From NCBI GenBank assembly GCA_963791045.1, contig CAWBQK010000013.1, forward strand, positions 64,001 through 128,000: DNA of 64,000 bases. Direction: 5' to 3'. The stretch's first letter is position 1; every line of letters begins with the position of its first letter. The notes under the pieces were generated by a model that made no database searches, was not told the origin of the DNA, and saw only the letters and a program-made list of their open reading frames with translations. Below, in pieces: positions 1-54,720 of the stretch. This DNA comes from Candidatus Latescibacterota bacterium. Lineage in GTDB: Bacteria; Krumholzibacteriota; Krumholzibacteriia; WVZY01. A program made the translations under genes and the position numbers.

Positions 1-3000
1 TATTGGGCCTCGACGAGCGACTTGCCCCGCTTGATCCGGTTGAGCCCCGTCTTAACAGCGACATATTCGTCGTCGACCTGGCTTGAGAACGACCGGTACC
101 CCTCGATATCAAACATCGCGGCGAGATCCCAGGTGATCGGGAACGTTTGTTTCATTCCCATGATTGTTCCCATTCGCTTGTCGTTCGCCGTCCGGTTCAT
201 CGCGTACTTCGTATACAGCTTCGAATTCTGACCCGTCTGCGCCTCGATGCCGGTGAGCAGCTGGTGGGTCGCAGGCCGGTTGTGCGCCGACAAGTACTCG
301 TGCGTCGCCACGACCCGGTATCTCTGGAGGAAGCGGTACGACAAAGCCGAAGTCAAACGGTCGGGATACTCATCGACAATATCCGCGCCCTGGTTCCGCT
401 CCCAATGCGTCCGAAGTTCCGCGCTGCGGCCGGCGCGGACGCCGGCGTCAAGCATGGTGAGAAAACTGCTGCTCTCGATACTTTCCTTGTCCTGCGTCGC
501 CGCCCTGAGGCCCGCGCCAAACATCAGGGTCTTCCCTTCGTACTTTCCAAGCACGTCCACATTGCCAAGACGGTCGCCGCTATTGTCATTCCGGTGTTTG
601 AAACCGTGCGAGTCGATGGACAGGTCGTTGCTTATTCTCAAGTGCGAGTCAAACCCCGCCTTTTCGCTGTAAAGCTCGCGCGAAGCTCCGGCAAACGACG
701 GGTTGAGGAAATTGCCGTCGACCTTGCGGAGATAAACCGAGTGCTCACCCATGAGTTTTTTCGTGCCCGCCATCACGCGAAACGCGTTGCCTTCGCCGGC
801 GATGTCGTCCTCGCTTCGAGCAAACTCGCCCCCCAGATCGAGCCAGCCTATCGAGTATCCGCCATCGAAGCCGTAGAGCGAATAATCCGAAAGATGCCCG
901 TCCTTGGCGATCGCGGTCACGCCGAGCTTGAAACGGCCGCTCTGTGCCAGTGCGCCTCGGATCCCGTAGAGATAGTCTCCCTCTTCCGACGATTCCGCCT
1001 CGTAGATGGCGACGATCCTTACCGGGTTCAATTCGCGCGTGAATGCGGGAATCGGCTCTTTGAAAAGAATCGCGCCGTTGAAATAGTTGACGGTGAAGTC
1101 CCGATGTTCAGTGAGGGGCCTGATCTCTAGAATTCTCTCGGACTGGTAGCGGTCGCGCACCTGGAGCATGAGGTTTACAGAGTTTTCCACGACGGGCGAT
1201 TTCGACAGGAAGTAGAACCCGCTGGTGCCGTCACCCTGGATTTCATCCTGGACGGTAAAGAAATCCGTTTTGGTCACGAACGCTTCGACACCGGCGTTCC
1301 CAGAAACGATGGCGCCGTTGAGGCCGGTGGCTGATTTCTTGTAGGTGAGAAATTCTCCCTCGGTAAACGGCGACCGGAAGTCTCCGTATCGCAAGAAGGA
1401 CTGCCCCTTCTCGAGGGCGATGTAATTGCCGCCCTGCGCGGGCGCCTCGTAGTGAAGCTCGGACGCGTCGCCGTACGCCGTGTACTGACGCTCGGGGTTG
1501 AAAGTCTGAAGGAGCGGATCGTCGTAGCGCTTATCGGTGTCGATACGCGCGGTCAAATTGATTCCCGCGTACGACGTCCCCTGGATAAAGAAACGCGACT
1601 CGCCTTTGAATCGAACACCCTCGTAGTAATCTTCGAGACCCAACGGATCGCCGCTCCCCGATGAGCTGAAAGCGCCGAGACGCCCCTCGATGATTCCCGA
1701 CATAAACATCGACCGGTGTGCCGGAACAAAAGCGACAACACATGTCGCCCTGTAACCGTGCGACTCGACGACAATATTCCGGCGCCCCGTTGTCAGGCTC
1801 GGCCGGATGTGCACGAGGAACTGTCCGTTCTCGCTCGAAATCTGCAGGCCGCGCTGATCCGGATCTTCGTCGGAGTTAGTAACAAGCGAATCGCCTTCGA
1901 TCACGGTGGCTATGAGACCGTTTATCGTCGGGAGACCGAGTTCGTCGCGGAGTTCGACCAGAATCGTCTCGCGTGACTGCCCGTCCGCGGGAAGGATGAC
2001 ACGATCGGGCACTATCGCGATATCCACGGGTTTGCCCGCGAGCGCGACCGACACGCTGTCGACAATCGTTTCGGCTCCATTGACGGGGGTCGCTTCGAGT
2101 CGAGGCGTGTTCCAACCGTTCTTGATGCGCACGGCGTAATAAGTGATCTCTTCGAATCGTTCGTCGAGATGGATTTCTTTTTTACCGATCCGGTCCGCGG
2201 GAACGAGTTCGTCACCGCTGAACAATTCGTACTTGCTGCCCAGCGGGACCCGGGCCGTGACTTCGATCTGGTCGCGCTTAATCACAACCGATCGGTCGGG
2301 CGGGTCAAGGAGTCCGAGCGCCTTTACCTTGTCCTGGCCGCCGCGTTCGTCCGGCGGACTCTGTTCAGCATCGCCGGCAACTCCGTTCGCTCCGCCAACG
2401 GAATAACTCGCCGTGCTGTCCCCGGGGGCAAAACCGACACCGGCGGCGCGCAAACGCATGGCGAGATCTTTGTCCTCTTCCCACGAAACCAGCGTGTAAT
2501 ACTCCGTCTCTTTGCCGCCCCATCCGTGGGCGAATGGCTCGAGGACGACCGTGGAATCGAGCCACGATGACGAAGCGTCGGGAACGTCCGGCCACGCGGG
2601 CTCGGTAATCGACCGGTTTGCTTCACGCCACGGGACTTTGCGGCTCGTGCTTGTCTCCACGCTTCCCAAATCCGCCCGCGTACTCGAACCACCATACGAA
2701 CTCGATCATCCGCCCCCGTGTCCCCGACCGTCGAGTTGAATCCGACAACGGAACGAATCTCGCGCACCCGATGCGTGTCGGACGCCGCCGCGGTAAACGA
2801 CACCTTGCACTCGATTCCGCGCGATCGGGCAAATCCACCGACGACATATCGGCCATCGACTTCGGCGATCCTCCCCGCCGCACGTGACGCGCGTCTTTGC
2901 GTCATCGAACACATCCGGGATTTCGAGCGCGAGATCAATCTCGACCGGGATTATCGCGTCGGAGGAGATTCCCCAAATCACAAACACGTGGAACGAATCG

Positions 3001-5282
3001 GCGACGGTTGTCACGTTACTCATGTCGGCTTCGACACGGTCGATTTCCGCATGGTCCTCGACACCGGTTCCCGGCGGAACAAAACTGACCTCGACACGAC
3101 GGTTCTCTGCGCGGCCTTCGCGCGTCGTGTTCGTCGCCACCGGCGTAGTGTCGCCGTGGCCTCGTGCGACGATCCGCTCTTGGGGAATCCCTTTGGCGGA
3201 CAGATACCGCTTAACCGCGCCGGCACGCGCCTCGGAGAGTTCCTGGTTCGAAGCAAATTCCGCGTTGTGGATCGGAATGCTGTCGGTGTGACCTTCCAGA
3301 TAGACGATCCAACCAGGATTCTTCTCGAGAAATTCGACAATCGGGTTGAGATAGTGCAGCGTCCCGGTTTTCAGATACGATTTGCCGATTTCGAACAGCG
3401 AACTTGGAATTGACGGCATCCGGTAAAGGGCCTGTTGTTGTTTCCGGATGCTCACCATTTCCTGGCAGGATATCTGACGCGACACCCGCGGCCTTTCGCG
3501 GGCCCGTTCGGGCATCGGGAATGACACCACCGCGTGGCCGCTGGGGATCATGTGGACCAACCGTTCGGTGCCGAACACTGCGTTGGTTTTTGTGGATATG
3601 GCCTCGATGTCGACGATGTCGGGCGCGAGCGTGCTTTCATCGATCCGGATTACACGAAAACCGGAAAACACCCACGGGACCGAGAAGCGCCCCGTCGAGT
3701 CGGTCAACGCGTACTCCCCGCTCTCGAGAAATACGCCGACCCTCGGGAGTCCCCTCTCTCCGTGATCACGCTTGCCGTTTTTGTTTGCGTCGACAAACAC
3801 ATCGCCAAGGAGGAAACCCTCGTCACCAAACATATCGTTTGCAATCTTGAGCGCGTTGACCACGGGCCCCGCGTAAAGATTGCGCGCGAGCGCCGTGCCG
3901 ACAGCGTTTCCGGTGATCTTCGTCCAGCCGTTCTTGACGCGACTGTTTGCGACAAACTTGATCACCGCCTGCCGGCGTTCCCCGGGAGCGAGTGATCCAA
4001 CCTGCCATGCGAGGGTCTTTCCGTCGAGCTCAAAATCCGGACTCGAGAGAAACTCGAGTGTCGGCTGAACCGTTTCGTCCACAACGACATTGTCGGCGCG
4101 GACGCTGTCGCTCCGGTTGGCAACCGCGACAACCAGGGTGACGATGTCACCGAAGGCCGCCGTGTTTTCTTTGAAAGTTTGTTCGAGACTGAGAACCGCC
4201 GACGGGTTGAACGGTTCGGCAAGAACAATCCGGTCGATTGTTTCGTTCGTCCGCGTCGTGTCGAGGAGCGAACGCGCTCGCAGACGAATCGATAACGAGT
4301 CCTGCCCGACGTGATAGAACGACTCATCTTCGGTGGTGACGTGAACTTGAAGCGTCCGTCTTTCACCGCTTTCCAGCTGACCGAGAAGCACCGCGCCCGA
4401 ACTGGCAGGAACCGTTCGAAGCCCGTTGCCGGCGCTGTCCCGCACGGTTACCTGAACCCCGGGCGGCCAACCGGTCGAATCGGCGGGCTCGATCCGAATT
4501 ATGTCCGGATCGCGGCCATCGTTAAGAATTTCGTTTTCAAAAACAAGTGTCTGCGTCGACACTCCAACGCTGCGGCGCGTGACGTCATCGGGACTACCCT
4601 CTCCGCCCGGCAACGCCTTCGCGTTCTCGAGCGGTCCGACGTGAAGCGGTTGGACTGGATCCGCCTGTGTGAGAATGTGAACAACGCTCGATGCCCGGCG
4701 CTCGAGCGTGTCGACACCCGTGGCCGCCGAAATATCGACATAACTATCCCCACCACCCTGCCCCGAAGTGAGAACGTACATCGTTCCCAGGTCCGTCGAC
4801 TCTCCGGGCCCGAGGTTGAGGAAGGATCGGTCTTCCTCTCCGGGATCGAAAGCGGAATTCCCGTTCGAATCGTGATAGAAAACGACATCACTGATTCCAA
4901 TCGTCGACGCGGACAAGATCGCGTGATCGACCGAGATCGAATCGGCGACGTTCCCCAGGTTTCGCACCACGAAACCGCACTGAACGGTATCCGCCTCGAA
5001 ACCGAACAGCGAATACGCGGGACTCGCTACCGTGCCGGCCGGCGTAAGCGAAATCTGGAAGAAAGGACCCACTGGTGTGGTCGCCGGATTGGACCGAACG
5101 GCGTGTCGGAAGCCGTTCTGAGTGTACTCGGCGCTGGACTGGGAAATGATTTCATAACCAAGAGGCGGGACGGCGGCCTGCACGTTTTGCCAAACAAAAA
5201 ACACCCCTACGACGACCCAACACCATAACAGGCGCTTTAACAATGGGTTATAGGGATGAATTCTCACTTGATGATCTCTCAA
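1..5282 (-). CDS. Giant secreted outer-membrane protein: N-terminal Ig/DUF11 repeats, SdrD-B-like domain, OmpA-like peptidoglycan-binding domain, Ig domain and long beta-rich barrel-like C-terminus. 3' end lies beyond the window. Interrupted by an apparent compensating frameshift pair (~2870 and ~2710).
   Basis: 858-aa ORF 5282-2706 has a signal peptide (..QNVQA|AVPP), DUF11 (GDIVTLVVAVAN..LAWQVGSLAPGE), FVDANKNGKRDHGE and OmpA motifs (EGHTD, NQELSEARA, NRRVE). In the segments I translated, the same frame resumes after TGA 2706 and reaches base 1 (NPERQYTAYGDASELHYEAP, ERILEIRPLTEHRDFTVNYFNGAILFKEPIP). The ORF track lists no stop-bounded ORF in that frame. Segment ~2870-2710 reads protein-like in another frame. 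Start codon uncertain. Confidence 0.8.
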
Positions 5283-5376: not shown

Positions 5377-8079
5377 CTACTCGGCAATGATCCGAACTAT
5401 AAAACTCACACCGGTTGCTGACGCTCCACCGGGTTCAAGAACTCCGGCGAGAACAAAACGCACATGCGTAACGTTCGCGTCGAAGTTGACCGGTGCACCG
5501 CCACCACCGCTGACCGGCGTGTACGTCCACGACGTACCGCCGTCATTCGAATACTGCGGCGTTACGCCGGTAATCGAAGCCGGTGGTGTGCCAGGGTCAA
5601 CGGAACCGACACGGAACTGCGTGAACGCCGGAACCGCGTCTATGACCGCAAGGGTCTGAAGCGAATCCGTTCCGAGGTTCTGATAGTCCGTGGTGTATGT
5701 AAGCTCCGAGCCCGGTGTTTGCGGGCCCGCGGGAGCCACTGCCTTGGTGATCTGGAGATCACCGGCTGTTATCAACGTGATGTCGATCGCGTCGTCGCTC
5801 ACGAGCGTGACGTTGCCTGTAGCGGTCAACGTGCCCGTCTCAACCGTTCCAACGGTCGCCGTACCGGGAACCATGACCTGAGCGATAACCGTAACGCTGG
5901 CGCCGGGGTTGAGCGTTACATCGGCCAGAGGGTTGTTGAGCGTATCGTAGAACAGATACGTCCATCCCTGCGACGAGACGTACGACAGCGCGAACGTATC
6001 GGCCACGTTACCGGTATTGGTTACCGTGTGCGTGTAGCGGATCGTCCCGCCGGGTGTCGTGCTCCCGTTCTGATCGGGAGAGAAATCAACCGCCGCAAAG
6101 TTGTTTATCGTAACTGTGTTGGCGATAGTGTCCAGAATGGTTCCGTTGGCAACCGAGGTCGCTGTAAACGACACGGGGTTGATACCCGGAGCCGCACCCG
6201 CAGGAACATCCACACGGGCGACGATATTTACCTCGGCTCCACCCGCGATCGGTCCCACCGATACCAGTGTCGTGGTTTCGCCGGGATCGAGCACACCGTT
6301 GCCGTTGGGATCGTCGTAGAACGTGACGTTCCATCCCGCGGGCACCGCATAGGTGAGCGTGTAGGAATCGCTTCCCCCACCCGTATTAACAACATCGAGC
6401 GGGAAATCAACCGACGTCGCCGGGTCGGCGGGCAGATCCAACGGATTGTTGTCCGTGCCCGGACCGGCAAGGTAGTTACCGATGTCCACGCTGACCGGCG
6501 TCACGTTGAGGACGCGATCAGTCGTAAGGTTGAACTCGGTTGGATCGATCGTCGACTGGGCACGGATAACCGCGTCAAACGGTCCGCCGGCAGCCTGGCT
6601 GCCCGGGATTACCAGTCGAACGATAATGTCGACACTGTCGCCCGGCGCAACGGGGCCCACATCGGGGAGTCCGTCAAAACCGGTATCGGCGAGCGGAGTC
6701 ACGCCATCTGACTGGAGCAAAAGAACGCCCCAGGTGGCGGGAAGTGTCGACGCCGGATCGGTGAGAATATTGATCTGATCGGCGGCATTGCCGTCGTTTC
6801 TTACGGTATTGACGAAGTCCACGGTCGTGCCCGCATCGGCGTTGGCGAGAGTCTGGAGATCGTCGTTGTACAGGGGAGGCGTACCGGCACCGGCGTCACC
6901 GGCAGGACCGATTACGATGTCCGCGAGACCGCCGATGGTCACCAGCGCGTTATTCGAAACGATCGTTGTCGGATCCGGTGTCACGGCGGTGTTGTCGATA
7001 TAGGTCACGGCCGCGGTGTTACCCAGTGAACCGGCGCCCATGCCGATCGGAACGGTCGCCTGATACACAAAGTTGTAACCCTGACCCGGAATGATCGCGC
7101 CGTTGGTCACATAACCGACGGCAAGGTCGCCCGGCCCTGCTACGAGGCCCCAGTTCCATGTTTCGGGATCTCCAGCGGTCGACTCGCCGGCGGGAAGATA
7201 AAGAACCGTTCCACCCGCTGGCGTACCAAACGGCACACCGGAAATTGCGAGAGGATTTCCCGTCGAAGGATCGGTCGGAATAATATCCCAGAGCAACACA
7301 CCGGTAAGACCAACGGAACCAACGGTTACGCCGTTCGCGTTGTTGTTACCCGTGTTTGAACCGGAAAGCGTGTAGGTTACCTGGTTGCCTTCGAATACGA
7401 TCGCGGGCGCGGCGGCGAGATTGGCCGTCATTACCGCGTCGTTCACAACGTCGGTCCTGTGATAATTGCGTGTGTCGATCTGTGCCGCGTCTCCAACAGA
7501 GACACCGGTCACACCGACGTAAGCAAGTTCACCCGAAACGGCGGCCGCGGGCACTGTGTAGGCGACGATAACACTGATTGTCTGCCCGGCGGTGAGAATC
7601 CCCGTATTGCCCGAAATGCCCCCGGCGCTCAGAACGGGTTCACCAAGATCCACCATGCCGTTCGAGTTGAGATCGTGATAAATCGTGACATCGACGTTGT
7701 TGAGCAACATTGTTGAATTCGCAACGTCAACATTGGGAGACAACGTAAAGTCATCGTCGTCATTACCCGTGTTGGTCAGATCGTATCTATAATATACGGT
7801 CATGCCGGGCAGTGCATTCTGAGCCATCGCCGGAGTCAGGGGAGGCGTTTCACCCGAATCATCGGGGAGAATCGACACACCAAACACCGGAAGAACGATG
7901 GTGATGACTTCATTTGATGTCGCGGAATAATTGTTCCCACCCATGTCCTGGTAGGTCGCAGATGACCGGTTCCGGATCTGCGTACCGGCAGGCGTTGCCT
8001 GCGCAAAGACAGTTGTTGCCGTGACCGCGACGATCAACAGCAACATCACGGGAAGGGTGATGTAGACTCGTCTACTCAT
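5377..8079 (-). CDS. Secreted 900-aa DUF11/Ig-like repeat protein, putative fibre (pilin-like) subunit
   Basis: Signal peptide (..TTVFA|QATP), RBS AAGGA. Repeated 'V.I.P..PG.T..Y..NTGN..D.F.L' Ig modules, Ca-loop motifs DLNSNGMVD and DPNGNGVLD, C-terminal DUF11 (LQITK..GSELTY..IDAVP..YSNDGG..VTHVRF). Thr/Gly/Val-rich. Confidence 0.85.
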   Translation of the reverse strand: MSRRVYITLPVMLLLIVAVTATTVFAQATPAGTQIRNRSSATYQDMGGNNYSATSNEVITIVLPVFGVSILPDDSGETPPLTPAMAQNALPGMTVYYRYDLTNTGNDDDDFTLSPNVDVANSTMLLNNVDVTIYHDLNSNGMVDLGEPVLSAGGISGNTGILTAGQTISVIVAYTVPAAAVSGELAYVGVTGVSVGDAAQIDTRNYHRTDVVNDAVMTANLAAAPAIVFEGNQVTYTLSGSNTGNNNANGVTVGSVGLTGVLLWDIIPTDPSTGNPLAISGVPFGTPAGGTVLYLPAGESTAGDPETWNWGLVAGPGDLAVGYVTNGAIIPGQGYNFVYQATVPIGMGAGSLGNTAAVTYIDNTAVTPDPTTIVSNNALVTIGGLADIVIGPAGDAGAGTPPLYNDDLQTLANADAGTTVDFVNTVRNDGNAADQINILTDPASTLPATWGVLLLQSDGVTPLADTGFDGLPDVGPVAPGDSVDIIVRLVIPGSQAAGGPFDAVIRAQSTIDPTEFNLTTDRVLNVTPVSVDIGNYLAGPGTDNNPLDLPADPATSVDFPLDVVNTGGGSDSYTLTYAVPAGWNVTFYDDPNGNGVLDPGETTTLVSVGPIAGGAEVNIVARVDVPAGAAPGINPVSFTATSVANGTILDTIANTVTINNFAAVDFSPDQNGSTTPGGTIRYTHTVTNTGNVADTFALSYVSSQGWTYLFYDTLNNPLADVTLNPGASVTVIAQVMVPGTATVGTVETGTLTATGNVTLVSDDAIDITLITAGDLQITKAVAPAGPQTPGSELTYTTDYQNLGTDSLQTLAVIDAVPAFTQFRVGSVDPGTPPASITGVTPQYSNDGGTSWTYTPVSGGGGAPVNFDANVTHVRFVLAGVLEPGGASATGVSFIVRIIAE

Positions 8080-8089
8080 AGTCCTTACC

Positions 8090-8581
8090 TCACTTGATTA
8101 CCGTTCTGTACGTTACAGTGATGCCTTGTTTTGGCTGGACGGGCTCCGAGAGAGCCCAACGGAGATGCGTCACCATGTCCGGTGTTGCCTCCACCAATTC
8201 TTCCTCGCCGTTCTCGTTCGTCTGTTTGACGAGAATCGGCCAGGCCTGGTACGTTTTTCCTCCATCGATGCTGTACTCCACGTCGCCCGTTTTGAGCTCG
8301 GTGGCTGACGGATGGACGAATTCGGTACCCAACGGGATTCCGTCCGTTATGAAAATATTCTGTATGGGCTGGTCGCCGGTGTTGGTGTAGGTCAACCGAT
8401 ATTCAATTGTATCGTTTGGCCTCGCGTTATCAGCGGGAAGAAAATCTTCCACTCCCTGGTCGGTAACCACCACCCGAAAAGCCTCGAGACTGCCCGCCAG
8501 ATCCCCCCCGGCGGCAAATGCCATCGATGCGGTCAATCCGAGAACAAGCAGAAACACCGCAAAGAAGCGCTTCTCTATCAT
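8090..8581 (-). CDS. Small secreted single-DUF11-domain protein (163 aa)
   Basis: GGAGG RBS before ATG 8581. Signal peptide MIEKRFFAVFLLVLGLTASMAFA. Motifs PNDTIEYRLTYTNTG..ITDGIP..EYSIDGGKTY..VTHLRW, homologous to the C-terminal domain of the 900-aa neighbour. Confidence 0.85.
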   Translation of the reverse strand: MIEKRFFAVFLLVLGLTASMAFAAGGDLAGSLEAFRVVVTDQGVEDFLPADNARPNDTIEYRLTYTNTGDQPIQNIFITDGIPLGTEFVHPSATELKTGDVEYSIDGGKTYQAWPILVKQTNENGEEELVEATPDMVTHLRWALSEPVQPKQGITVTYRTVIK

Positions 8582-8695: not shown

Positions 8696-8711
8696 AGCAA
8701 GGAGTGAACCA
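8696..8711 (-). promoter_or_regulatory. Candidate sigma54 (-24/-12) promoter of the DUF11 operon
   Basis: Minus strand TGGTTCACTCCTTGCT = TGG-N10-GC with TTGCT, ~115 bp upstream of ATG 8581. A GAFTGA activator is encoded next door. Confidence 0.6.
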
Positions 8712-8857: not shown

Positions 8858-8928
8858 TTTCTGGCGAAGACACCCGGAACAGGCCGAAAAGTGTTGAATA
8901 TTCTCCACCCAATGGCAATTATTTGGTC

Positions 8929-9993
8929 ATGGACTTACCATCGCGCGCATCAAGGTACAGGCTGGCAATAGTCCTGGTGGTGTCACTGGCGACCGTGGCC
9001 TTCCATTACGGCCTCATCGTCAAGCCATCGGCGGGAGATGACGGATTTTTTCATGCGATACACGGGCGTCTCTGTTATATCCCGATCATCCTCGGCGCGA
9101 TCTGGTTTGGGGTTCGCGGCGGCCTCGGAATCGCTCTTTTTATAACGGCGCTCACAATCCCATACGCCCGGTACGGCCCGCACGCCCAACACGGCGCGGC
9201 GATCGGCGAATACACCGAGATGATTTTCTATGTCGCGATCGGCCTCACGGCGGGGTTTCTTATCGAACTTCAAAGACGAGAACGTAAAAGGCGGGAGGAG
9301 ATGGCCGACGAACTCGCCCGCCAGGAACACCTCTCATCGCTCGGGCAAATGGCCGCCGGTCTCGCCCATGAAATCAAAAACCCGCTCGGTTCGATAAAAG
9401 GATCCGCCGAAGTCATTGGCGACGATTATCCCGAAGGCACGCGCAAACATGAAATCGTCGAAGTGCTTTCGAAGGAAACCGACAGGTTGAATCGCGTCGT
9501 GGAAGATTTCCTCAAATTCGCGCGGCCGCGGCCGATAAACAAAGAGATGCGCGGGTTGAACTTTCTGCTCGAGGAAGTCGTGTTGCAGATTGGAGTGGAT
9601 GCAAACGCCCGCAACATCACAATCAAAAAAGACATCGACGTCGCACTTCCTGTGGCGCGGGTCGATCCCGAGAAAATGCGCCAGGTGTTTTTGAATATGC
9701 TGCTCAACGCCGTGAACGCGATGCCCGACGGGGGCACTATCCGTGTCGAAACCAAAGTGGACATCCGTGACGGCAAGAACGTCTTTCGCATCACATTCAT
9801 GGACGAGGGCGTCGGAATACCGCCCGAGGATGTCAAAAAAATATTCGATCCGTTTTTCACGCGGACGGACGGCGGGACGGGTCTTGGACTCTCGATTTCA
9901 CACTCCATCGTCCAGGAACACGGCGGCCATATCGAGGTCGAACCCAACCACCCGCGGGGGACGTCGATTTCCGTTATCCTGCCCTTTAAATAA
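8929..9993 (+). CDS. Membrane-bound sensor histidine kinase (NtrB/ZraS/PilS-like)
   Basis: About 4 N-terminal TM helices, H-box LAHEIKNPL, N-box QVFLNMLLNA, G boxes DEGVGI, FDPFF, GTGLGL. Confidence 0.92.
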   Translation: MDLPSRASRYRLAIVLVVSLATVAFHYGLIVKPSAGDDGFFHAIHGRLCYIPIILGAIWFGVRGGLGIALFITALTIPYARYGPHAQHGAAIGEYTEMIFYVAIGLTAGFLIELQRRERKRREEMADELARQEHLSSLGQMAAGLAHEIKNPLGSIKGSAEVIGDDYPEGTRKHEIVEVLSKETDRLNRVVEDFLKFARPRPINKEMRGLNFLLEEVVLQIGVDANARNITIKKDIDVALPVARVDPEKMRQVFLNMLLNAVNAMPDGGTIRVETKVDIRDGKNVFRITFMDEGVGIPPEDVKKIFDPFFTRTDGGTGLGLSISHSIVQEHGGHIEVEPNHPRGTSISVILPFK

Positions 9994-10004: not shown

Positions 10005-11354
10005 ATGCCCAGGCCAACCATACTCATAGTCGATGATGACGCGAGCATCCGCAAAGTCCTCGGATTTATCCTCGAGGAGGCGGGCTATGCGATTCGCACG
10101 GAATCGTCGGGCGCGGCGGCAATCGCGGCCATTGAGAGCAAACGGCCCGACCTCGTAATGACCGATATCAAGATGCCCGGGATGGACGGGATTACGCTTC
10201 TCGGCGAAATTAAGAAAATCGACGACGGCATCCCCGTCATCGTGCTCACCGCGTTTGGCTCGGTGGAGACGGCCGTCGACGCCATGAAACTCGGGGCAAT
10301 CGATTATCTCACGAAACCAATCAGCCGGGATGAGCTTACACTCACCGTCGAGAAAACGCTCCGGATACGACAACTCGAAAAAGAGAACGTGTCGTTAAAA
10401 GAATCTCTCGCCGACAAGTTCGATGTGGCGAACATCATCGGACACTCCCCCGCCATGCAAAGCGTATTTGAAATCGTCCGGAAGGTGGCGGCCACGGACG
10501 CGTCGGTCCTGATAACCGGCGAAAGTGGAACCGGGAAGGAACTCATTGCAAGGGCAATTCACTTCAACTCCACCCGCAAGGATGCGCGGCTTGTCACGGT
10601 AAACTGCGCGGCGATTCCCGAGGACCTTCTTGAAAGTGAGCTTTTTGGGCATGTAAAGGGCGCGTTCACCGGAGCCATCAGGAAGAAGGACGGCAGGTTT
10701 CACCTGGCGCACAACGGGACCATTTTTCTCGACGAGATCGGATCGCTTCCCCGACCCCTCCAGGCAAAACTCCTTCGAGCGCTTCAGGAACAAGAAATCC
10801 AAAGGGTCGGCGAAGAAGAACCCACAACGGTCGACGTTCGTGTGATTTCAGCCACCAACCGTCCCCTGCCCGAGCTGATTCGCGACGGGGAATTTCGCGA
10901 CGATCTTTTTTACCGATTGAATGTCGTACCGGTCACCGTGCCACCGCTGCGTCAGCGCCGATCGGACATACCGCTTCTCGTCGATCACTTTAAGGGGGAC
11001 GGAGGAAAGGTAACGTTCACCGCCTCGGCGCTCGCGGCGCTCGAGGAGTACGAATGGCCGGGAAACGTGCGCGAGCTGGAAAATTTTTGTGAACGCATCG
11101 TGTTGATGTCAGGCTCGGGCACGATCGACGCCGCACCAGTACGGGAGCAGATCGAATTGATGAAAGCGGAACAAGCCCATATCGGATCACCGCAACAGGC
11201 AACGCTTCCCGAGGTGGAACGCCGCGCCGTGGTCGAAGCGCTTATCGACTGCAACTGGAACCAGTCGAAAGCCGCCCGCCGCCTCGGCATCCCACGGCAC
11301 GTTCTTCTCTATCGCATGAAGAAGTTCAACATCCACCGCGACCATTCCGACTAA
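10005..11354 (+). CDS. Sigma54-dependent NtrC-family response regulator
   Basis: Receiver (ILIVDDD, DLVMTD), AAA+ GESGTGKE, GAFTGA, WPGNVRELEN, C-terminal Fis-type HTH (NQSKAARRLGI). Confidence 0.96.
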   Translation: MPRPTILIVDDDASIRKVLGFILEEAGYAIRTESSGAAAIAAIESKRPDLVMTDIKMPGMDGITLLGEIKKIDDGIPVIVLTAFGSVETAVDAMKLGAIDYLTKPISRDELTLTVEKTLRIRQLEKENVSLKESLADKFDVANIIGHSPAMQSVFEIVRKVAATDASVLITGESGTGKELIARAIHFNSTRKDARLVTVNCAAIPEDLLESELFGHVKGAFTGAIRKKDGRFHLAHNGTIFLDEIGSLPRPLQAKLLRALQEQEIQRVGEEEPTTVDVRVISATNRPLPELIRDGEFRDDLFYRLNVVPVTVPPLRQRRSDIPLLVDHFKGDGGKVTFTASALAALEEYEWPGNVRELENFCERIVLMSGSGTIDAAPVREQIELMKAEQAHIGSPQQATLPEVERRAVVEALIDCNWNQSKAARRLGIPRHVLLYRMKKFNIHRDHSD

Positions 11355-16820: not shown

Positions 16821-17993
16821 ATGTCCGCAGAACGAAGAACGATGCTGATATTGTTTGCCGTGGCGCTGGGATTGCGAGTTCTTTACGGCGCATTTCTCGC
16901 CAACCAACCCGACCTCGTTCCCAGCCCCATAACTTCTGACCTGAGTTATGCGAAGGAAATAGCCACGGGAACTCGATGGTTCAACGAGCCGTTGTCACCG
17001 CGATCGCCAGGGTACCCCCTGGTTCTGGCGTCATTCTACGTCGTTTCGGCCAAGCATTTCTGGCTGATGATATTTCTCCAGGCAATCCTCGGGGCGTTGA
17101 CGGTCGTTCTTCTCTACCGGATAGGGACGAGAATGCTGGGCCCGGTCTTCGCGGTGGTCGCCGCGCTCTGGTTCGCGTTCCATGTCTTTCATATGCATGT
17201 CGGGCATTTCTTCCACAGGGACATCCTGAGTGTTTTCCTTTTGACGCTCCTCGTGTACATACTGACACGGCCATTCAAGCGGATGTGGTACGGACTCATC
17301 GCTGGAATCATCTTCGCGGCGCTCGCGCATGTCGACCCGCAGTTTCTTCTCCTCCTCCCCGTGTTCGCAATTTTTATTCTGTTCAAATCACGGCACGGGT
17401 TTCTCAACATTCAGTATCTCTTTTTGTTTTTCTTCGCCGCGATCGTAATTTCGCTGCCGTGGACCATGAGGAACAACACCATCTACGGGCAACCCATCCC
17501 CATTGGACTCGAAGCCAGAAAATACCTGCGACCGGCCAAATCCGTCGTGACAAATCCCGACAAGGGTTTGTCCGAACTCGAAAGCAAGATCACGCGGGCG
17601 TCACGTGCCCGGCTCATCGAGAGAAACACCGTCGAGTTCTGGCGTTTCGCGAAATTCGAAGGGGACGTTGTGGAGTCCGCCGATTCAACGTTTGGCGGAG
17701 GGCTGGAGCCGGCGTGGTCGTTCCGGCACAATCTCGTCAGCATCCTCAATTACGGGATTCTGCTACCGTTCTTCGCCTTGGGGCTCGTGCTGGTCGTCCG
17801 CGACCGGAACAGAACCGGGCTCATGCTCGCTACGGTCACGGTCGCCTTTTTTGTCATGAGGATGTATCTCGGCGGGGATGAACGCATAAGGCTCGCCGTC
17901 GACCCATTTATTGTGATTCTGGCTTTCTACGGAATCTCATGGATGATCGGCACGCTGTGGAAACCCAGGTCGGCCGAAGACACCCAGGACTAG
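16821..17993 (+). CDS. GT-C fold (ArnT/PMT, GT39-like) membrane glycosyltransferase
   Basis: Multi-TM, early-loop Asp (TSDLSY), RSPGYP, PWTMRN, C-terminal ERIRLAVDP. Confidence 0.8.
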   Translation: MSAERRTMLILFAVALGLRVLYGAFLANQPDLVPSPITSDLSYAKEIATGTRWFNEPLSPRSPGYPLVLASFYVVSAKHFWLMIFLQAILGALTVVLLYRIGTRMLGPVFAVVAALWFAFHVFHMHVGHFFHRDILSVFLLTLLVYILTRPFKRMWYGLIAGIIFAALAHVDPQFLLLLPVFAIFILFKSRHGFLNIQYLFLFFFAAIVISLPWTMRNNTIYGQPIPIGLEARKYLRPAKSVVTNPDKGLSELESKITRASRARLIERNTVEFWRFAKFEGDVVESADSTFGGGLEPAWSFRHNLVSILNYGILLPFFALGLVLVVRDRNRTGLMLATVTVAFFVMRMYLGGDERIRLAVDPFIVILAFYGISWMIGTLWKPRSAEDTQD

Positions 17994-26547: not shown

Positions 26548-26823
26548 TTGGATCGGTTTGTAGTTCCCTTGCAAAAGAATAATCAAGAAGACCACTACTG
26601 GGCGATGCGCCAGGTTGGTCTGCTTACAACGATCCCCGTCCTGCTCGCGGTATCTCCATTAATTGGTTTTTTTATGGGTCAGTTTCTCGACAAGAAACTG
26701 AATACGGATCCGATTTTCACAATCGGATTTCTCATTCTCGGTTTCATCGCTGGTGCAAGACAGACCGCGCGGGTCATCAAACTCGCCAGCAAAGAAAAGA
26801 AGAGAAACGACGATGGGTCTTGA
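26548..26823 (+). CDS. atpZ: AtpZ/AtpI family small membrane protein
   Basis: Two TM helices with GFFMGQFLDKKLNTDP motif. First gene of atp operon. Start uncertain. Confidence 0.8.
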   Translation: MDRFVVPLQKNNQEDHYWAMRQVGLLTTIPVLLAVSPLIGFFMGQFLDKKLNTDPIFTIGFLILGFIAGARQTARVIKLASKEKKRNDDGS

Positions 26824-27220
26824 ATTCCTGACACGAGTGAGAAAGACATCCATCGTATCGGGTGCCGTCGTAGCTCTTATCATGTTCGTTTACGCCAGCC
26901 CCGCTGCAGCCATCGCTTTTGCCCTGGGGTGTGCGTGGTCGCTCGTTAACCTGCACATGATTCTGGTTCTCGTCCGGCTCGTCGTCAACGATCCGGAAAA
27001 CCATAAGATCCGAATAGCCGTAGTGACGATAATTAAAGTCCCTGCGTTGTACACGGCAGGATATTTTCTTCTCACAACCGGCTACTTGCCTGTCATGGCT
27101 TTGCTTTCGGGTTTTATCTGGCCGCTTTTCGTGGTGTTTCTCAAGGCGGGAGGGCGGCTGGTTCTCGGTCTGGACCACCCCAACCGGGGCGCTCAAACCC
27201 AAAAAGGTATTCGACAATGA
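26813..27220 (+). CDS. atpI: ATP synthase protein I
   Basis: 4-TM protein between atpZ and atpB, overlapping both. Confidence 0.75.
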   Translation: MGLEFLTRVRKTSIVSGAVVALIMFVYASPAAAIAFALGCAWSLVNLHMILVLVRLVVNDPENHKIRIAVVTIIKVPALYTAGYFLLTTGYLPVMALLSGFIWPLFVVFLKAGGRLVLGLDHPNRGAQTQKGIRQ

Positions 27221-28077
27221 CACGATACGTGACGAACAAGCTCTACGCTCTCGCCGCCGCGACATCGATCTTTCTCGTGTCGGCGAGTGGTTATGCCGCC
27301 GCATCCGGCGAAGGCGAGGCGCACGAACTCCCCAACTTTATCACGGTTATATATCACTTCCTCGTAGGTACCACTGTCGGCGAATTTCTCCACAAGTGGG
27401 AGAACCTGATCTTTTCCTTTCTCATCGCCGGCCTTCTTATATTGATCGTTAGAATCGCCTCAAAGAATCCCAAGATGATCCCGGGGAAGTTCCAGAACGC
27501 CATCGAGTTCGTCATCGAAGAGCTGGAAAAGTTCATCGTCGGCATTCTAGGTCCACGCGGCAAAAAGTTCGTCCCGTTTCTTGGCACCCTCTTTCTCTAT
27601 ATTCTTCTGATGAACTACATGGGATTGATTCCCCTTATGAAAGCGCCCACAGCCGGGATCAACCAGACCATTGCCCTGGCCTTGTGCGTTTTCGCCTATG
27701 TCCAGTTCACCGGGCTCAAAGAAAACGGTTTTCTTGGTTATCTCGACCATCTCGCGGGGCAGCCGCGGTCGATGATGCAGTACTTCTTCGTACCGATGAT
27801 GTTTCCGCTTCACATCATCGAGGAACTTGCCAAACCGATGAGCTTATCGCTTCGTCTCTTTGGTAACGTAACCGGTGAAGACATTCTGATTTTCATTTTT
27901 GTCGGTCTTGGGGTTGGATTGATGAGTTTTTCACACCTCCCCATCGGTATCCCGCTGCAGCTGCCGTTCTACTTTCTTGCGCTGCTTACGGGATTTATTC
28001 AAGCACTCGTGTTCATGTTGTTGAGTACGATTTATTTCTCAATGATGCTTCCGCATGATGAGGATGAGCATCACTAG
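27217..28077 (+). CDS. atpB: F0 subunit a
   Basis: PGKFQN, KPMSLSLRLFGN, IQALVF. Confidence 0.97.
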   Translation: MTRYVTNKLYALAAATSIFLVSASGYAAASGEGEAHELPNFITVIYHFLVGTTVGEFLHKWENLIFSFLIAGLLILIVRIASKNPKMIPGKFQNAIEFVIEELEKFIVGILGPRGKKFVPFLGTLFLYILLMNYMGLIPLMKAPTAGINQTIALALCVFAYVQFTGLKENGFLGYLDHLAGQPRSMMQYFFVPMMFPLHIIEELAKPMSLSLRLFGNVTGEDILIFIFVGLGVGLMSFSHLPIGIPLQLPFYFLALLTGFIQALVFMLLSTIYFSMMLPHDEDEHH

Positions 28078-28099
28078 TCCTTAAAAGGAGGATTCTACA

Positions 28100-28339
28100 A
28101 TGGACTATCAAGCAATGTTGGGTTTGTCTCTCCCGATCGGACTCGGTATCGCCGCTGTGGGTAGCGGTCTCGGTCTTGGCAAGGCCGTCGGTTCGGCAAT
28201 GGAAGCCATCGGTCGTCAGCCTGAAGCTTCGGGTAAGATCCAGGTCGCGATGATCATCGGCGCCGCGCTCATCGAAGCGCTCACCATTTACGCGCTGGTA
28301 ACCGTCTTCTTGCTTCAGGGCAAGATTGGAACCCACTAG
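28100..28339 (+). CDS. atpE: F0 subunit c
   Basis: [20 protein letters not shown]. Strong RBS AGGAGG. Confidence 0.98.
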
Positions 28340-28428
28340 TAAATCAGTCGCCACAGTCATCCGATTGACCGCAGGCCGAGGGCGGCACGCGTTCGCCTTG
28401 GCCCGGTTGAATCGATAAGGAGCTTATT

Positions 28429-28914
28429 ATGCAGATCGAGTGGGGACAGATCGTCACCCATATTGTCGGCTTCCTTATCGCTGTGTGGTTGGTGAGACGA
28501 TACGCCTGGGACAAACTCATGGCGTTTATCGAGCACAGGCGTGAGACCATCGCGAATTCGTTCTCCGAAATCGAACAGGGTCGGGAGGACGTTGCCGCGC
28601 AGAAGCAGCACTACGAGCAGGAACTCGAAAACATCGAGGCCACCCGCCGCGTCAAGATTCAGGAAGCGGCCCGCGAAGCGGAAACATTCGCCGGCGAGAT
28701 CCGTGAAGAGGCCCGCAAAGAAGCCGTAGGAATGCGGCAGAAGGCCAAGCAGGATATCGTGGTTGAGATCGACAGGGCCAACGTGTTGTTCAAGGAAAAC
28801 ATGGTCGAGGCGGTTTTTTACGCCACCGAAAAGATCATTAAGGACAAGCTCGACAAGGATAAGCACACCGCGCTCATCAACGATTTCCTCGACGAGGTAA
28901 AGGTGGATCAATAG
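28429..28914 (+). CDS. atpF: F0 subunit b
   Basis: N-terminal TM plus charged coiled coil. Operon position. Confidence 0.93.
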   Translation: MQIEWGQIVTHIVGFLIAVWLVRRYAWDKLMAFIEHRRETIANSFSEIEQGREDVAAQKQHYEQELENIEATRRVKIQEAAREAETFAGEIREEARKEAVGMRQKAKQDIVVEIDRANVLFKENMVEAVFYATEKIIKDKLDKDKHTALINDFLDEVKVDQ

Positions 28915-28970
28915 CGCGAACCGCCCCGGGGCGGACCGCCAGGAATCCAGACAAGGAAGAGGTTTCCGCA

Positions 28971-29564
28971 GTGATAATCAGCGGGATAGCACAACGATAC
29001 GCAAAAGCGTTACTCCAGGCCGCCTTGAAACAAGACGTGGTCAAGGAAGTGTACGAGGACACGCAGGGTTTTCTCTCACTATTGAGCGAAGAGCCCGCGT
29101 TCCGGAACTTTCTGCTGGCGCCGCAGGTGTCGACCGAGAAGAAGCAGGATGTCATCAAGAAGGCCATTGGCCCGCACGCTTCCCGCCTGGTAGTGGAAAT
29201 CATCGATCTTCTCATCGAGAAGAAGCGGCTGATGTTTGTCGAGGAGATCGCCGAGGCTTATAAGGTTCTCTACGAAAAACACATGGGAATCGTGGAGATT
29301 CAAGCGGTTACCGCAATACCACTGGATGATGCGCTCGAGACAAAGCTACGCACGAAACTCGAGAGCGAAACGCAAAAGACCATTCGGATCAAGACGGTGG
29401 TCGATCCGTCGATTATCGGCGGCGTAGTTTTGCGAATGGAAGACAAGGTTATCGACGGAAGTATCCGCCACAAAATCGATATGCTCAAACGGCATGTCGG
29501 GGAAACAAGAGTCGAATCTCTCTCCGGTGCCGGTGGCACGCCTCCCGCTGAAAACGATGAATGA
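28971..29564 (+). CDS. atpH: F1 subunit delta
   Basis: IAQRYAKAL, VDPSIIGG..VIDGS. Confidence 0.95.
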   Translation: MIISGIAQRYAKALLQAALKQDVVKEVYEDTQGFLSLLSEEPAFRNFLLAPQVSTEKKQDVIKKAIGPHASRLVVEIIDLLIEKKRLMFVEEIAEAYKVLYEKHMGIVEIQAVTAIPLDDALETKLRTKLESETQKTIRIKTVVDPSIIGGVVLRMEDKVIDGSIRHKIDMLKRHVGETRVESLSGAGGTPPAENDE

Positions 29565-29630
29565 TATTTAATATGAAAGACGCACACGCGACACGCACGA
29601 GTTGAAAACGTCCGAACAGGAGAAATCAAG

Positions 29631-31157: not shown

Positions 31158-31175
31158 ACGAGACGGACGACTAAA

Positions 31176-32114: not shown

Positions 32115-32124
32115 AGAGATTTGA

Positions 32125-33609
<1,485 letters not shown>

Positions 33610-33625
33610 GAAGGTGTGCCCCGCT

Positions 33626-33910
33626 GTGGACCCGACATTCAGTTTCAAAATCCTGAGCCCCAAGGCTCAAATTCTCGACGAAGAGGTCGTTTCGATAGTC
33701 GCCCCGGGCGCGGCCGGTTATCTCGGTGTCCTCGCCAATCATGCTCCATTGATCACCACAATGACCGATGGCGAGTTAAAGGTCCGTTTTGCCGGTGGCA
33801 ACGAGAAACGGTTTCATATAACGGGTGGGATTTTGCGCGTGTCACACAACACCGCTGTTTTGCTGACCGAATCGATCGATGAGGTTGGAGGGTCAGGGGC
33901 TACAGGCTAG
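33626..33910 (+). CDS. atpC: F1 subunit epsilon (short, 94 aa)
   Basis: [29 protein letters not shown] start, last gene of operon. Confidence 0.92.
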
Positions 33911-38123: not shown

Positions 38124-38131
38124 CAAAAGAC

Positions 38132-43686: not shown

Positions 43687-43714
43687 TTTACAAAGCCCCC
43701 TCACATGTTATAGT
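43687..43714 (+). promoter_or_regulatory. Candidate sigma70 promoter of peptide ABC operon
   Basis: TTTACA-16bp-TATAGT with extended TG. Confidence 0.5.
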
Positions 43715-43782
43715 AAAAACAAGGTGGTTTACTCTCCCGGTCTTGGTTTGCCGGGAAAATGCGGTATCGAGGAGGACGACAA

Positions 43783-47529: not shown

Positions 47530-48355
47530 TCACACTTCGTCATCCGCCTGACATACCGGGCAGAAGTGTGTGCCGCGCCCACCAAGAACGATTTTCTCAA
47601 TTGGCGTACCGCACTCAAGACACGGCTGTCTTTCTCTTCCGTACACCGCGTGACGCTGTTGAAATCCGCCCGCCGTACCGTCGTGACGCCTGTAGTCGCG
47701 AATTGTCGACCCGCCCTCGGCAATCGCACGTTTGAGAATGCGCCCTCGCCGATGCAAGTATCTCCCTCGTATTCGCGGCGGCGCGGGTTCCGGGCATCCG
47801 CGGATTCACACCAGCGTCGAAGAGGAGCTCATCGATGTAGATGTTTCCAAGCCCCGAGACGATACGCTGGATGAGAAGCAGTGATTTTACCGGCGCGCTT
47901 CGCCCTTCAAAGACGCCACGGAGGTATGCTGTGCGCACCGCAAACGCATCGGGGCCGATGTTGAGATCCTCGAGGAAATCGCACCCGTCTGCGACATAAA
48001 CGTACCCGAACCGCCGCGGGTCGTAGAACCTGAGCTCGCCCCCGCCATCAAGGACAAAACGGCCATGAAGGTGTTTGCCGCGTCGGCGGATTTCGTCATC
48101 CCCCCGTTCGCACAAGATCAACCGGCCGGTCATTCCCAGATTAACCGTCATCAAGGCCCTGGGTCCAAAACGGAACACGGCGTTTTTGCCCACCCGTTCG
48201 ACCCGTGTGACCACCCGATCGTTTAGCCAACCCACATGGAGGCTCCCCCGCCGGTACATCGTGGCGGGCGATAACCGCCCCTTTAAGATACGGCGCCCAC
48301 GGAGGGGCCGGTCGAGCCCCCGGACGATGGTCTCAACCTCTGGAAGTTCCGGCAT
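47530..48355 (-). CDS. mutM: Formamidopyrimidine-DNA glycosylase, single extra base near 47745
   Basis: MPELPEVE, RVGK, LGMTG, DPRRFG, SGLGNIY..E. Zinc finger CLECG..FCPVCQ lies in the shifted frame. Confidence 0.92.
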
Positions 48356-54055: not shown

Positions 54056-54720
54056 ATGCGGAGATGGATGTTGTTGGGCATCGTGGGGATACTGGTCGTG
54101 GGCATGATGGGGTGTTCGTGGAGCCAGAAAGCGAAAGGCGCGTTAATCGGCGCGGGAACCGGAGCCGCGGTCGGCGGAGCCATCGGTCACCAGTCGGGCA
54201 ACACAGCCGCCGGAGCCATAATCGGAGCCGCGGTCGGCGGGGCCGCGGGGCGTACATCGGCAACTACATGGACAAGCAGGCCGAGGAGATGGAGCGAGAC
54301 ATCGAGGGCGCCAAAATCGAACGTATCGGAGAAGGAATCAAGATCACGTTTGATTCGGGTTTGATGTTCGATGTGGACAAGGCATCCCTCAAACCGCAAA
54401 GCCAATCAAACCTCGAAAATCTGGCAACGATCCTGAACAAATATGACGACACAAATATTCTTCTCGAGGGTCACACCGACGCCAGCGGTTCGGAGGAGTA
54501 CAATCTCAATCTATCGAGATCGCGTTCCCAGTCGGTGGCGAACTATCTCGCCGGCCTCCAGGTCAACGAGACTCGTTTCACGATCATGGGATACGGAGAA
54601 GCACAACCGATCGCAACGAACGACACCGACGAAGGCAAATCACAGAATCGGCGTGTCGAAGTAGCGATCTACGCAAACGACAAGTTGAAAAAAGTCGCGG
54701 AGGATGAAGTCGAAGGCTGA
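54056..54720 (+). CDS. Glycine-zipper OmpA-family lipoprotein (YiaD-like), one missing G near 54250
   Basis: AGGAGG RBS, lipobox MMGC, GALIGAGTGAAVGGAIG zipper. The other frame gives YMDKQAEE..EGHTD..NLNLS..GYGEAQP..NRRVE. Confidence 0.92.

Follow-up and report, generated by a model that had tools for sequence, protein, structure and literature searches.

Compensating frameshifts in a giant gene and a candidate split-domain fibre operon in a Krumholzibacteriota genome

A 64,000-nucleotide stretch of a Candidatus Latescibacterota bacterium genome (contig CAWBQK010000013.1, positions 64,001 to 128,000 of the forward strand; hereafter the window, at its full length) has at its left end two long minus-strand open reading frames (ORFs) separated by a single stop codon, next to genes for two smaller proteins with DUF11-type domains. 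This locus raises the question of whether the two ORFs are one giant gene with a broken reading frame and, if so, what its product does. We find that the two are parts of one gene, the third of a conserved operon, and we propose, at about even chances, that the products of this operon build a fibre by split-domain complementation. The neighbouring proteins are called tip, shaft and fourth protein below, after the positions that they would have in such a fibre.

The first ORF (ORF1, 5282..2706, 858 aa) and the second (ORF2, 2669..3, 889 aa, incomplete at the window edge) share a minus-strand frame, and translation of 5282..3 yields 1,760 codons with only one stop, the TGA at 2708..2706. A preliminary description of this DNA, made from the sequence alone, had stated that the same frame goes on past the stop at 2706 to the window edge, as is the case. 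Between about 2880 and about 2600, this frame (frame 0) reads as an Arg/Cys/Trp-rich string, and the adjacent frame reads as normal-looking protein ('...IAEVDGRYVVGGFARSRGIECKVSFTAAASDTHRVREIRSVVGFNS'). Matches to relatives by tblastn follow the same path: residues 36-805 of relative P0002 match frame -2 (5177..2868) and residues 811-847 match frame -3 (2854..2744, 51% identity), while residues 799-851 of P0004 match frame -3 (2869..2711, 47%) and residues 894-1416 are in frame -2 again. With L001, the closest locus protein, the frame -3 match spans 2857..2732 (59.5% identity, E 3.6e-12) and the frame -2 match resumes at 2561. Because the relatives' matches change frame across the junction, the pair of +1 and -1 shifts is real in the sequence as given, and the earlier view that a compensating frameshift pair hides a single gene is borne out. 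Codon log-odds prefer frame -3 from 2884 to about 2720. The exact site of the -1 shift within 2731-2562, a span of 170 nt (2 mod 3), could be pinned neither by homology nor by codon log-odds; the distance between the two indels is some 140-310 nt. The junction consists of the following features.

2868..2876, minus strand: first frame change (+1), at GGGGAGG; relatives' high-scoring segment pairs pass from frame -2 to frame -3
2711..2869, minus strand: segment offset by one, a conserved small domain after the OmpA domain; 47-59.5% identity to P0004, P0002 and L001 in frame -3
2706..2708, minus strand: TGA, reached only by out-of-frame reading
2562..2731, minus strand: interval with the second frame change (-1), a variable linker; the last frame -3 match ends at 2732 and frame -2 restarts at 2561

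The arrangement of this gene elsewhere was examined in 79 related loci from GTDB species genomes, retrieved with a 14-row alignment; the window's own genome is not among them, and the best identity is 60-61%. The OmpA part and the barrel part of the protein lie on a single ORF that runs through the junction in 37 of the 79 loci, which answers in favour of one gene the question of whether homologues are one gene or two. Among the 50 ORFs in these loci that are free of contig-end cuts, 32 pass a threshold of at least 1,800 aa and measure 1,900-2,100 aa; the other 18 comprise 14 of a shorter Campylobacterota type (1,367-1,501 aa) and four that look split or short (L006, L040, L050 and L056). A phmmer search with ORF2 gave 2,188 representative proteins with E <= 0.001, of which 755 have E <= 1e-30, and most of the 150 matches listed have 1,600-2,200 aa, with the match to ORF2 beginning at about residue 800-1,100. 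The window's own downstream protein is in the database as P0179 (1,104 aa): it is identical to the window over 885 residues, has 218 more and ends in '...DYKF'. We conclude that minus-strand 5282..3 belongs to a single gene of about 1,978 codons, of which the final 218 fall past window position 1. The length predicted in the preliminary description, more than 1750 aa, agrees with the 1,760 codons in the window and the 1,978 in total.

The break itself most probably goes back to an error in the assembly or sequence, or else to a very recent mutation, given that two other genes of the same window, fpg and a gene of the SBP_bac_5 family, are also frameshifted. The fpg (mutM) gene (minus strand, 47533-48355) is divided between ORF 48355..47618, which encodes Fpg residues 1-199, and an ORF in another frame, 47805..47533, which encodes residues 188-264 with the zinc finger included. 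The SBP_bac_5 gene (about 43700-45410, plus strand) is spread over three frames, among which profile pieces 17-38, 113-159, 160-288 and 287-345 alternate. Three or more frame changes must fall within 1.7 kb here, through decay of the gene or poor assembly of this stretch. An F-type ATP synthase operon (26753-33910, plus strand; a, c, b, delta, alpha, gamma, beta) is ordinary, and as every one of its genes is intact, it shows the greater part of the window to be free of frame errors. Within the giant gene, similarity to relatives is on the same level in the shifted segment (47-59.5%) and in the remaining protein (54-60%), some 1,100 downstream codons are still open, and the codon-usage score is strong in both halves.

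Alternatively, the break could be real and the gene either a pseudogene or a source of two products, an 858-aa OmpA-anchored DUF11 protein and a barrel deprived of its front half; we consider this possible, but clearly the less probable explanation. The stop is there in the sequence as given, and the source gene callers recorded two proteins, P0001 (853 aa) and P0179 (1,104 aa). Long homopolymers were looked for at the shift sites and none was found, which leaves the kind of error unexplained and counts in favour of a real break. Other metagenome-assembled genomes (MAGs) carry split versions as well (202+1,761 aa in L006, 1,035+1,323 aa in L040 and 2,117+1,028 aa in L056), but these may share the same cause. 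Against a real break stand the lack of a signal peptide on ORF2, so that the downstream piece could not reach the outer membrane, the absence of further decay across about 1,100 codons and an out-of-frame segment conserved as well as the rest. Two more frameshifted genes in the same 64 kb, one of them fpg, fit an error-prone assembly at least equally well. That both frame changes are programmed recoding would be suggested only by their mutual compensation. It would need two efficient shifts of opposite sign, the frame-0 reading in between meets a stop, and unrelated genes of the window are shifted too; because relatives read straight through the junction (37 related loci), we regard recoding as very unlikely, to the point of being negligible. 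In L056 (Fidelibacterota; L056:1394-13060), a 2,117-aa DUF11-repeat ORF overlaps the 1,028-aa barrel ORF, and in L009 the shaft is split as 305+677 aa.

The preliminary description had also proposed that one polypeptide may combine fibre base, peptidoglycan tether and export barrel. A combination of subunit-like N-terminal modules, a peptidoglycan-binding domain and a large predicted C-terminal barrel was recovered, with the OmpA domain at E 7e-19 and the barrel predicted from an AlphaFold2 (AF2) model and Foldseek. The giant gene has the following parts (Ig, immunoglobulin).

3..5282, minus strand: interrupted giant gene of about 1,978 codons, with its 218 final codons outside the window, past position 1
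5175..5282, minus strand: signal peptide, residues 1-36; TTG start, likely cleavage after VQA
5067..5174, minus strand: N-terminal hairpin motif, residues 37-72; Ser47 (5144..5142) stands at the position of shaft Asn37
3945..4193, minus strand: internal complete DUF11/CLIPPER-type domain, residues 364-446; Pfam PF01345, E 6.5e-10, 39.8 bits (cut-off 24.6)
3690..3806, minus strand: SdrD_B-like (prealbumin-like) segment, residues 493-531; PF17210, E 2.4e-4, 21.7 bits, below the 29.7 cut-off
3099..3398, minus strand: OmpA-family peptidoglycan-binding domain, residues 629-728; PF00691, E 7.4e-19, 68.3 bits (cut-off 27.2), profile 1-98 of 98
1722..2309, minus strand: two Ig-like domains before the barrel; from the AF2 model of P0026 residues 62-257, mapped by phmmer register
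3..1703, minus strand: large predicted beta-barrel region of about 32-35 long strands, running 218 residues past the window; from the AF2 model of P0026

The signal peptide is assigned on its basic n-region, hydrophobic core and A-x-A-like site, and an alignment of 28 giants agrees. Directly after it, the mature N-terminus 'AVPPLGYEIISQSSAEY..SNPATTPV' aligns with 'ATPAGTQIRNRSSATY..SNEVITIV' of the 900-aa neighbour. The likeness extends beyond this motif, as the preliminary description had supposed in comparing the following modules to subunit repeats: the modules after the hairpin are homologous to the N-terminal modules of shafts (ORF1 residues 36-159 against residues 26-161 of the L003 shaft, E 8.6e-6), and shaft residues 8-164 match the giant of L005 (E 3e-10). 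The SdrD_B-like segment is conserved in the family consensus. Many NCBIfam models of the OmpA/MotB/Pal type match the protein, all of them only at the OmpA stretch, where the OmpA motifs 'GHTD', 'LS..RA' and 'NRRVE' can be seen. The OmpA domain is followed by the small conserved domain that is frameshifted here, a disordered variable linker, the two Ig-like domains and the barrel, whose C-terminus ends in an aromatic residue. The phmmer register places P0026 residues 2-829 on ORF2 residues 61-887. In relatives the second Ig-like domain resembles Big_1/Invasin_D3, with weak Pfam matches in P0034 and P0036. The most conserved block of the giant family, with nearly invariant columns, lies at about 1505..993 (ORF2 residues about 389-559).

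Giants also share a strongly conserved 'GP..N..ALPGGEGS.DD' between their Ig-like modules (window about 4610-4560, ORF1 residues about 225-241), and the shaft carries a similar motif, 'GP.G..GAGTPP.YNDD'. Proteins P0008, P0012, P0017 and P0005 (from Deinococcus, Thermus and others) are DUF11 proteins of about 900 aa that start with 'TPAGTVI.NQA' and share the giant's 'GP.GN..A.PGGEGS.DD'; they have neither OmpA domain nor barrel and look like a free-standing version of its N-terminal half.

The nature of the barrel was approached through relative P0026, which is 43% identical and covers the true C-terminus. Its AF2 model, from a 48-row alignment, has a mean predicted local distance difference test score (pLDDT) of 85.2 and a predicted template modelling score (pTM) of 0.75, and contains two Ig-like domains followed by about 32-35 long strands and a conserved insert of about 120 residues. 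Barrel closure and strand number were read from the secondary-structure string of this model, which is that of a relative and not of the window protein. Among the 50 PDB matches listed by Foldseek, the membrane proteins are Deinococcus SlpA (8ae1, 8agd, 7zgx), LptD, MtrB, SprA and Cir, with TM-scores of only 0.14-0.29; even 8ae1_A, at probability 1.00, has a TM-score of 0.20, and Cir (2hdi, 2hdf) appears, with TMq 0.14, at ranks 39 and 45. The intimin match 6tqd covers the Ig domains only. Of the ushers, TonB-dependent receptors, SprA and Omp85 to which the preliminary description had looked for a fold, SprA and Cir were thus listed, but no usher or Omp85, and the best membrane-protein match was SlpA.

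No Pfam or NCBIfam family was assigned to the barrel part in the window ORFs or the scanned relatives. An usher family was not matched at E <= 0.1 in the window ORFs or at E <= 0.01 in the scanned relatives, and Omp85 gave no Pfam or NCBIfam match in either; neither an usher nor an Omp85 protein is among the 50 Foldseek matches listed. The autotransporter, intimin, two-partner secretion and TonB-dependent receptor families likewise gave no Pfam or NCBIfam match. The SlpA beta-barrel family (SlpA_C, PF21620, cut-off 35 bits) was matched below cut-off by P0022 (27.9 bits) and P0004 (16.4 bits), and the window protein has no match. By the tests run, the giant falls outside the usher, autotransporter, Omp85, TonB-receptor and SlpA_C families, and the earlier term 'usher-like' is not supported. 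Source labels of family members are generic ('OmpA family', 'MotB', 'TIGR01451 repeat protein'); names of their records suggest that Desulfosarcina widdelii and a Sphingomonas isolate carry the family, and look-alikes in the ESM Atlas are clusters of 'hypothetical protein' that have no Pfam families.

Upstream of the giant on the same strand lie the two genes with which it forms the operon.

5377..8079, minus strand: shaft-like subunit, 900 aa; N-terminal hairpin at 8001..7894, with Asn37 (7971..7969)
5787..5380, minus strand: C-terminal DUF11 domain of the shaft, which stops after strand F; Lys779 (5745..5743) and Asp814 (5640..5638)
8090..8581, minus strand: tip-like single-domain protein, 163 aa; ATG at 8581 behind AGGAGG, truncated DUF11 domain, no N-terminal hairpin

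Against PF01345 (cut-off 24.6), the shaft scores 25.4 bits and the full 234-aa tip ORF 23.8, just below; as cut-out pieces, the shaft C-terminal domain scores 28.7 and the tip 25.4 bits. In related loci the gene order tip, shaft, giant is kept and is followed by a fourth gene of about 1,310-1,360 aa, whose product has a signal peptide, NPCBM_assoc and SdrD_B-like segments and a C-terminal DUF11 domain. In the window's genome this fourth gene would be found outside the window, past position 1. Loci of the Krumholzibacteriota/Latescibacterota type repeat this four-gene order, and the same layout with shorter shafts (300-585 aa) is found in loci labelled as Desulfobulbaceae, Desulfobacteraceae, Fidelibacterota and Sulfurovum/Campylobacteraceae.

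Comparison of these proteins revealed a division of one domain between the ends of different chains. All 33 of the 33 shafts have 'TPAGTxI(R/Q/E)N..SA(T/R)(Y/F)...SN(E/Q/L/D)V.T.V' two or three residues past the signal-peptide site, and all 33 end in '...G(V/L/I/A).(F/L).(V/A)(R/Q)I...' right after strand F, the strands being assigned by our own reading of the pattern 'LRW.VG.L..G....L.Y...V' against complete DUF11 domains. Tips (35 sequences) and fourth proteins break off at the corresponding point of the fold. With a profile built from the N-terminal motif, there were 157 matches that begin within the first 130 residues of proteins and only seven internal ones, all of them 35-75 residues past a DUF11 A-F core, which is the position of the last hairpin. 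In turn, where an internal complete domain matches the acceptor profile up to the last position, as four do, the chain goes on with a hairpin as long as the motif, and in one of the four 15 of 34 positions are identical to the shaft N-terminus by our own count. By this logic of sequence and length, the motif would be the last two-strand (G-H) hairpin of complete DUF11 domains. The hairpin is missing at the C-terminus of tip, shaft and fourth protein and present at the N-terminus of shaft and giant, so that only the shaft shows both. A set of acceptor-only, donor-plus-acceptor and donor-only proteins is the pattern expected for a head-to-tail polymer with acceptor-only caps and a donor-only anchor.

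We therefore sketch the following assembly, in which each step is conditional; we infer both strand donation and covalent linkage from patterns in the protein sequences. The operon would make a cell-surface fibre through complementation of a split DUF11 domain. In tip, shaft and fourth protein, the terminal DUF11 domain, which is without its last two strands, would serve as acceptor; in shaft and giant, the two-strand hairpin right after the signal peptide would serve as donor. The chain could then run from a tip or fourth protein (acceptor only) through copies of the shaft (donor and acceptor) to the giant (donor only), which would close it, with the barrel fixing the fibre to the outer membrane and the OmpA domain fixing it to peptidoglycan. 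The barrel may also be the exit pore. At each shaft-to-shaft joint, the invariant Asn of the hairpin and the Lys and Asp of the acceptor could make a spontaneous Lys-Asn isopeptide bond. The giant has Ser, Gly or Ala at the Asn position in most members of the window's clade, and the joint to the giant would therefore be non-covalent there; going one conjecture further, as the preliminary description did, such an attachment might let the fibre be extended or released.

The residues concerned were examined in each kind of protein. Every one of the 33 shafts has Asn37, Lys779 and Asp814, and those shafts of other phyla that were read keep all three. A Lys, Asp and Asn isopeptide triad has been reported for DUF11/CLIPPER domains (PDB 9IFR; PMC12617251, as far as its available text goes), to which the three shaft residues probably correspond, judging by sequence pattern. 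Among the 28 giants of the window's clade, the Asn position is Ser in 17 (the window included), Gly in four, Ala in one and Asn in six, so that Ser, Gly or Ala stands there in 22 of 28. The preliminary description was accordingly right that the giant has Ser at the donor Asn position (Ser47) and that feature is conserved in the clade, but it is not a trait of the family: in the wider family, counted over the 62 of 150 representatives whose N-terminus matches the motif, the residue is Asn in 55, Ser in three, Gly, Ala and Thr in one each, and a gap in one. Both Lys and Asp are present in 22 of 33 fourth-protein candidates, which were picked by regular expression (the other 11 fall outside the expression). 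In the giant's internal DUF11 domain, 32 relatives differ from one another at the positions of Lys, Asp and Asn, and the terminal domains of shaft and fourth protein keep Lys and Asp but are without the Asn-bearing strands; neither kind of domain shows a conserved Lys-Asp-Asn triad of its own.

Several results weigh against the fibre proposed here. The OmpA domain sits between the fibre-like half and the barrel, an order in which the chain would have to cross the membrane once more, and the N-terminal half of the giant may instead be periplasmic. No chaperone-like gene is conserved in the operon in the related loci. Only eight of the 35 tips have Lys and Asp; 16 have Lys and Gly, nine (the window included) have Arg and Asp, and there are two others. 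As Asn is kept in 55 of 62 giants of the wider family, Ser at the base does not hold as a rule for the family at large, and as the Asn is also conserved in internal complete domains that have no conserved Lys, it is by itself no proof of an isopeptide bond. For an AF2 model of shaft residues 27-400, with the acceptor domain left out, the criterion was fixed in advance, a floppy N-terminus speaking for a free donor element and an ordered one against it; the hairpin came out ordered (pLDDT blocks 87, 94, 94 and 94), as a two-armed hairpin with strands at 8-11, 14-18, 24-28 and 32-35. A preformed hairpin is compatible with strand donation, but the claim that the motif is a donor element, which the preliminary description had made, is supported by the missing-strand match and not by this fold. 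An hhalign comparison of the hairpin alignment with the giants' complete DUF11 domain was not significant (probability 0.1), and Pfam recognised no DUF11 domain in the 49-aa N-terminal peptides. Other comparisons were uninformative: hhalign found no significant match between the shaft C-terminal domain and the complete domain of the giants, phmmer of the same domain against PDB sequences gave nothing relevant, and Foldseek of the shaft N-terminal model found only generic tandem-Ig proteins (integrin legs, PrgB, CfaB fusions, AgI/II, RbmA). The Pfam match has the same extent (profile 1-85 of 114) in truncated and complete domains and therefore cannot show truncation.

Two other explanations of the giant have to be considered beside the fibre. 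The giant might be an outer-membrane-to-cell-wall tether and pore of the SlpA/OmpM kind, with the DUF11 proteins forming a periplasmic or membrane-associated layer and no external fibre. Its nearest membrane folds are indeed the Deinococcus SlpA entries (8ae1, 8agd, 7zgx), relatives P0022 and P0004 have the sub-threshold SlpA_C matches given above, and fusion of an OmpA domain to a barrel is the design of a tether; in P0036 the OmpA domain follows the barrel, as expected with both barrel ends in the periplasm. We nevertheless judge it unlikely, as the TM-scores are only about 0.2 and the window protein has no SlpA_C match; a tether also leaves three truncated C-terminal domains and two N-terminal hairpins unexplained, and DUF11/CLIPPER domains are described, in the text available of PMC12617251, as stalks of surface adhesins. 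Slightly less probable again is a self-exporting adhesin of the autotransporter kind, in which the barrel would bring the N-terminal half of its own chain to the surface and the motif, instead of being donated, would be part of an N-terminal fold or a recognition signal. The order of passenger then barrel, the hairpin that is ordered even in a model made without the acceptor domain, and the sharing of entire N-terminal modules, rather than the motif alone, by shaft and giant would all suit such a protein. It is opposed by the lack of any autotransporter, intimin or two-partner-secretion family match, by an OmpA domain, which is periplasmic, between passenger and barrel, and by the homology of the motif to the last hairpin of complete DUF11 domains; moreover, tip and fourth protein are without the motif, yet they belong to the same operon and have signal peptides.

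The proposed fibre can be set beside several known systems. In chaperone-usher pili, the incomplete Ig-like domain of a subunit is completed by the N-terminal extension of the next subunit, and the last subunit donates only. These pili (Pap/Fim, with usher PapC/FimD) and the present operon are alike in logic, with the roles of tip, major subunit, outer-membrane component and adhesin. The pili differ from the present case in that no usher or chaperone family match and no conserved periplasmic chaperone gene was found here, that the element proposed to be donated is a two-strand hairpin and the subunits are 900-aa multidomain rods, and that the membrane component shares one chain with the presumed terminating subunit and an OmpA domain.

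Closer in logic are the Pam pili of Candidate Phyla Radiation bacteria, which, in the part available of a preprint (PMC13278184), consist of multidomain pilins, each with a truncated C-terminal Ig domain that accepts a strand from the N-terminus of the following pilin, with a single-domain pilin, PamT, and a terminator, PamR, that inserts its N-terminus and anchors the fibre. Pam pili have membrane-anchored chaperones and belong to cells that have no outer membrane, whereas the operon here encodes a barrel and no chaperone; DUF11 and isopeptide bonds each have no occurrence in that part of the preprint. Sulfolobus threads, according to the text at hand of PMC9715654, combine donor-strand complementation with inter-subunit isopeptide bonds and have no dedicated secretion machine described there, as is proposed for the operon here; they are archaeal, have another subunit family and lack a barrel or OmpA anchor. 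Deinococcus radiodurans SlpA and OmpM of diderm Firmicutes join a wall-binding domain and a large barrel in one polypeptide as the giant does, but with an SLH domain and coiled coil in place of OmpA and Ig modules, and without a fibre-subunit-like N-terminal half (PMC9388160 and PMC10628300, both in their accessible portions); the TM-score of the giant to SlpA is about 0.2, and SlpA_C is below cut-off in relatives and absent from the window protein. The intramolecular isopeptide domains of the DUF11/CLIPPER type belong to the same domain family, with the bond inside one domain (PMC12617251, available text). In the present operon the Asn-bearing hairpin is on the end of another polypeptide and the bond is a prediction only. 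The proposed joint would be a natural counterpart of the engineered split tag/catcher pair (PMC5487036, available text). Full-text literature searches, with the supplements of cited papers outside their scope, found no description of this operon or barrel family.

A bolder version of the proposal, which we think improbable, is that the operon represents a new class of diderm fibre with no chaperone, usher homologue or sortase, in which polymerisation by hairpin is followed by an isopeptide lock and the giant is pore, terminator and anchor in one; the Ser/Gly hairpin of the window's clade would then be an exchangeable, non-covalent placeholder, displaced by arriving subunits that carry Asn, and covalent locking would drive growth from the base. 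If the fibre is real, these giant outer-membrane proteins, a large family with 2,188 representative clusters at E <= 0.001, would mark an unrecognised pathway of fibre assembly, spread over several, mostly uncultured phyla, and would provide a case of natural intermolecular isopeptide locking by a split domain in two-membrane bacteria. As gene callers split such genes at small indels, the family is under-annotated.

The operon is flanked by a divergent regulatory pair and preceded by a candidate promoter element.

8923..9993, plus strand: divergent histidine kinase (Pfam)
10005..11354, plus strand: sigma-54-dependent response regulator (Pfam)
8697..8711, minus strand: candidate sigma-54 -24/-12 element (TGGTTCACTCCTTGC), upstream of the tip gene, with two mismatches

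A pair of kinase and sigma-54-dependent regulator also flanks the operon in L003, L005, L006, L007, L009 and L016. Matches to the sigma-54 -24/-12 pattern are not enriched in the window (34 found against 47 expected); because of this and of its two mismatches, TGGTTCACTCCTTGC is a lead only. Elsewhere in the window, a perfect match to the -24/-12 consensus (TGGCACTTCGGTTGC) is present at 53992-54006 on the plus strand, about 60 nt upstream of a gene for a 218-aa OmpA-family protein (54064..54720). The stretch 35976-40237 (plus strand) holds two tandem genes for proteins of about 700 aa with a PMT_2 glycosyltransferase-like membrane domain and TPR repeats, and a third PMT_2 gene lies at 16821..17993.

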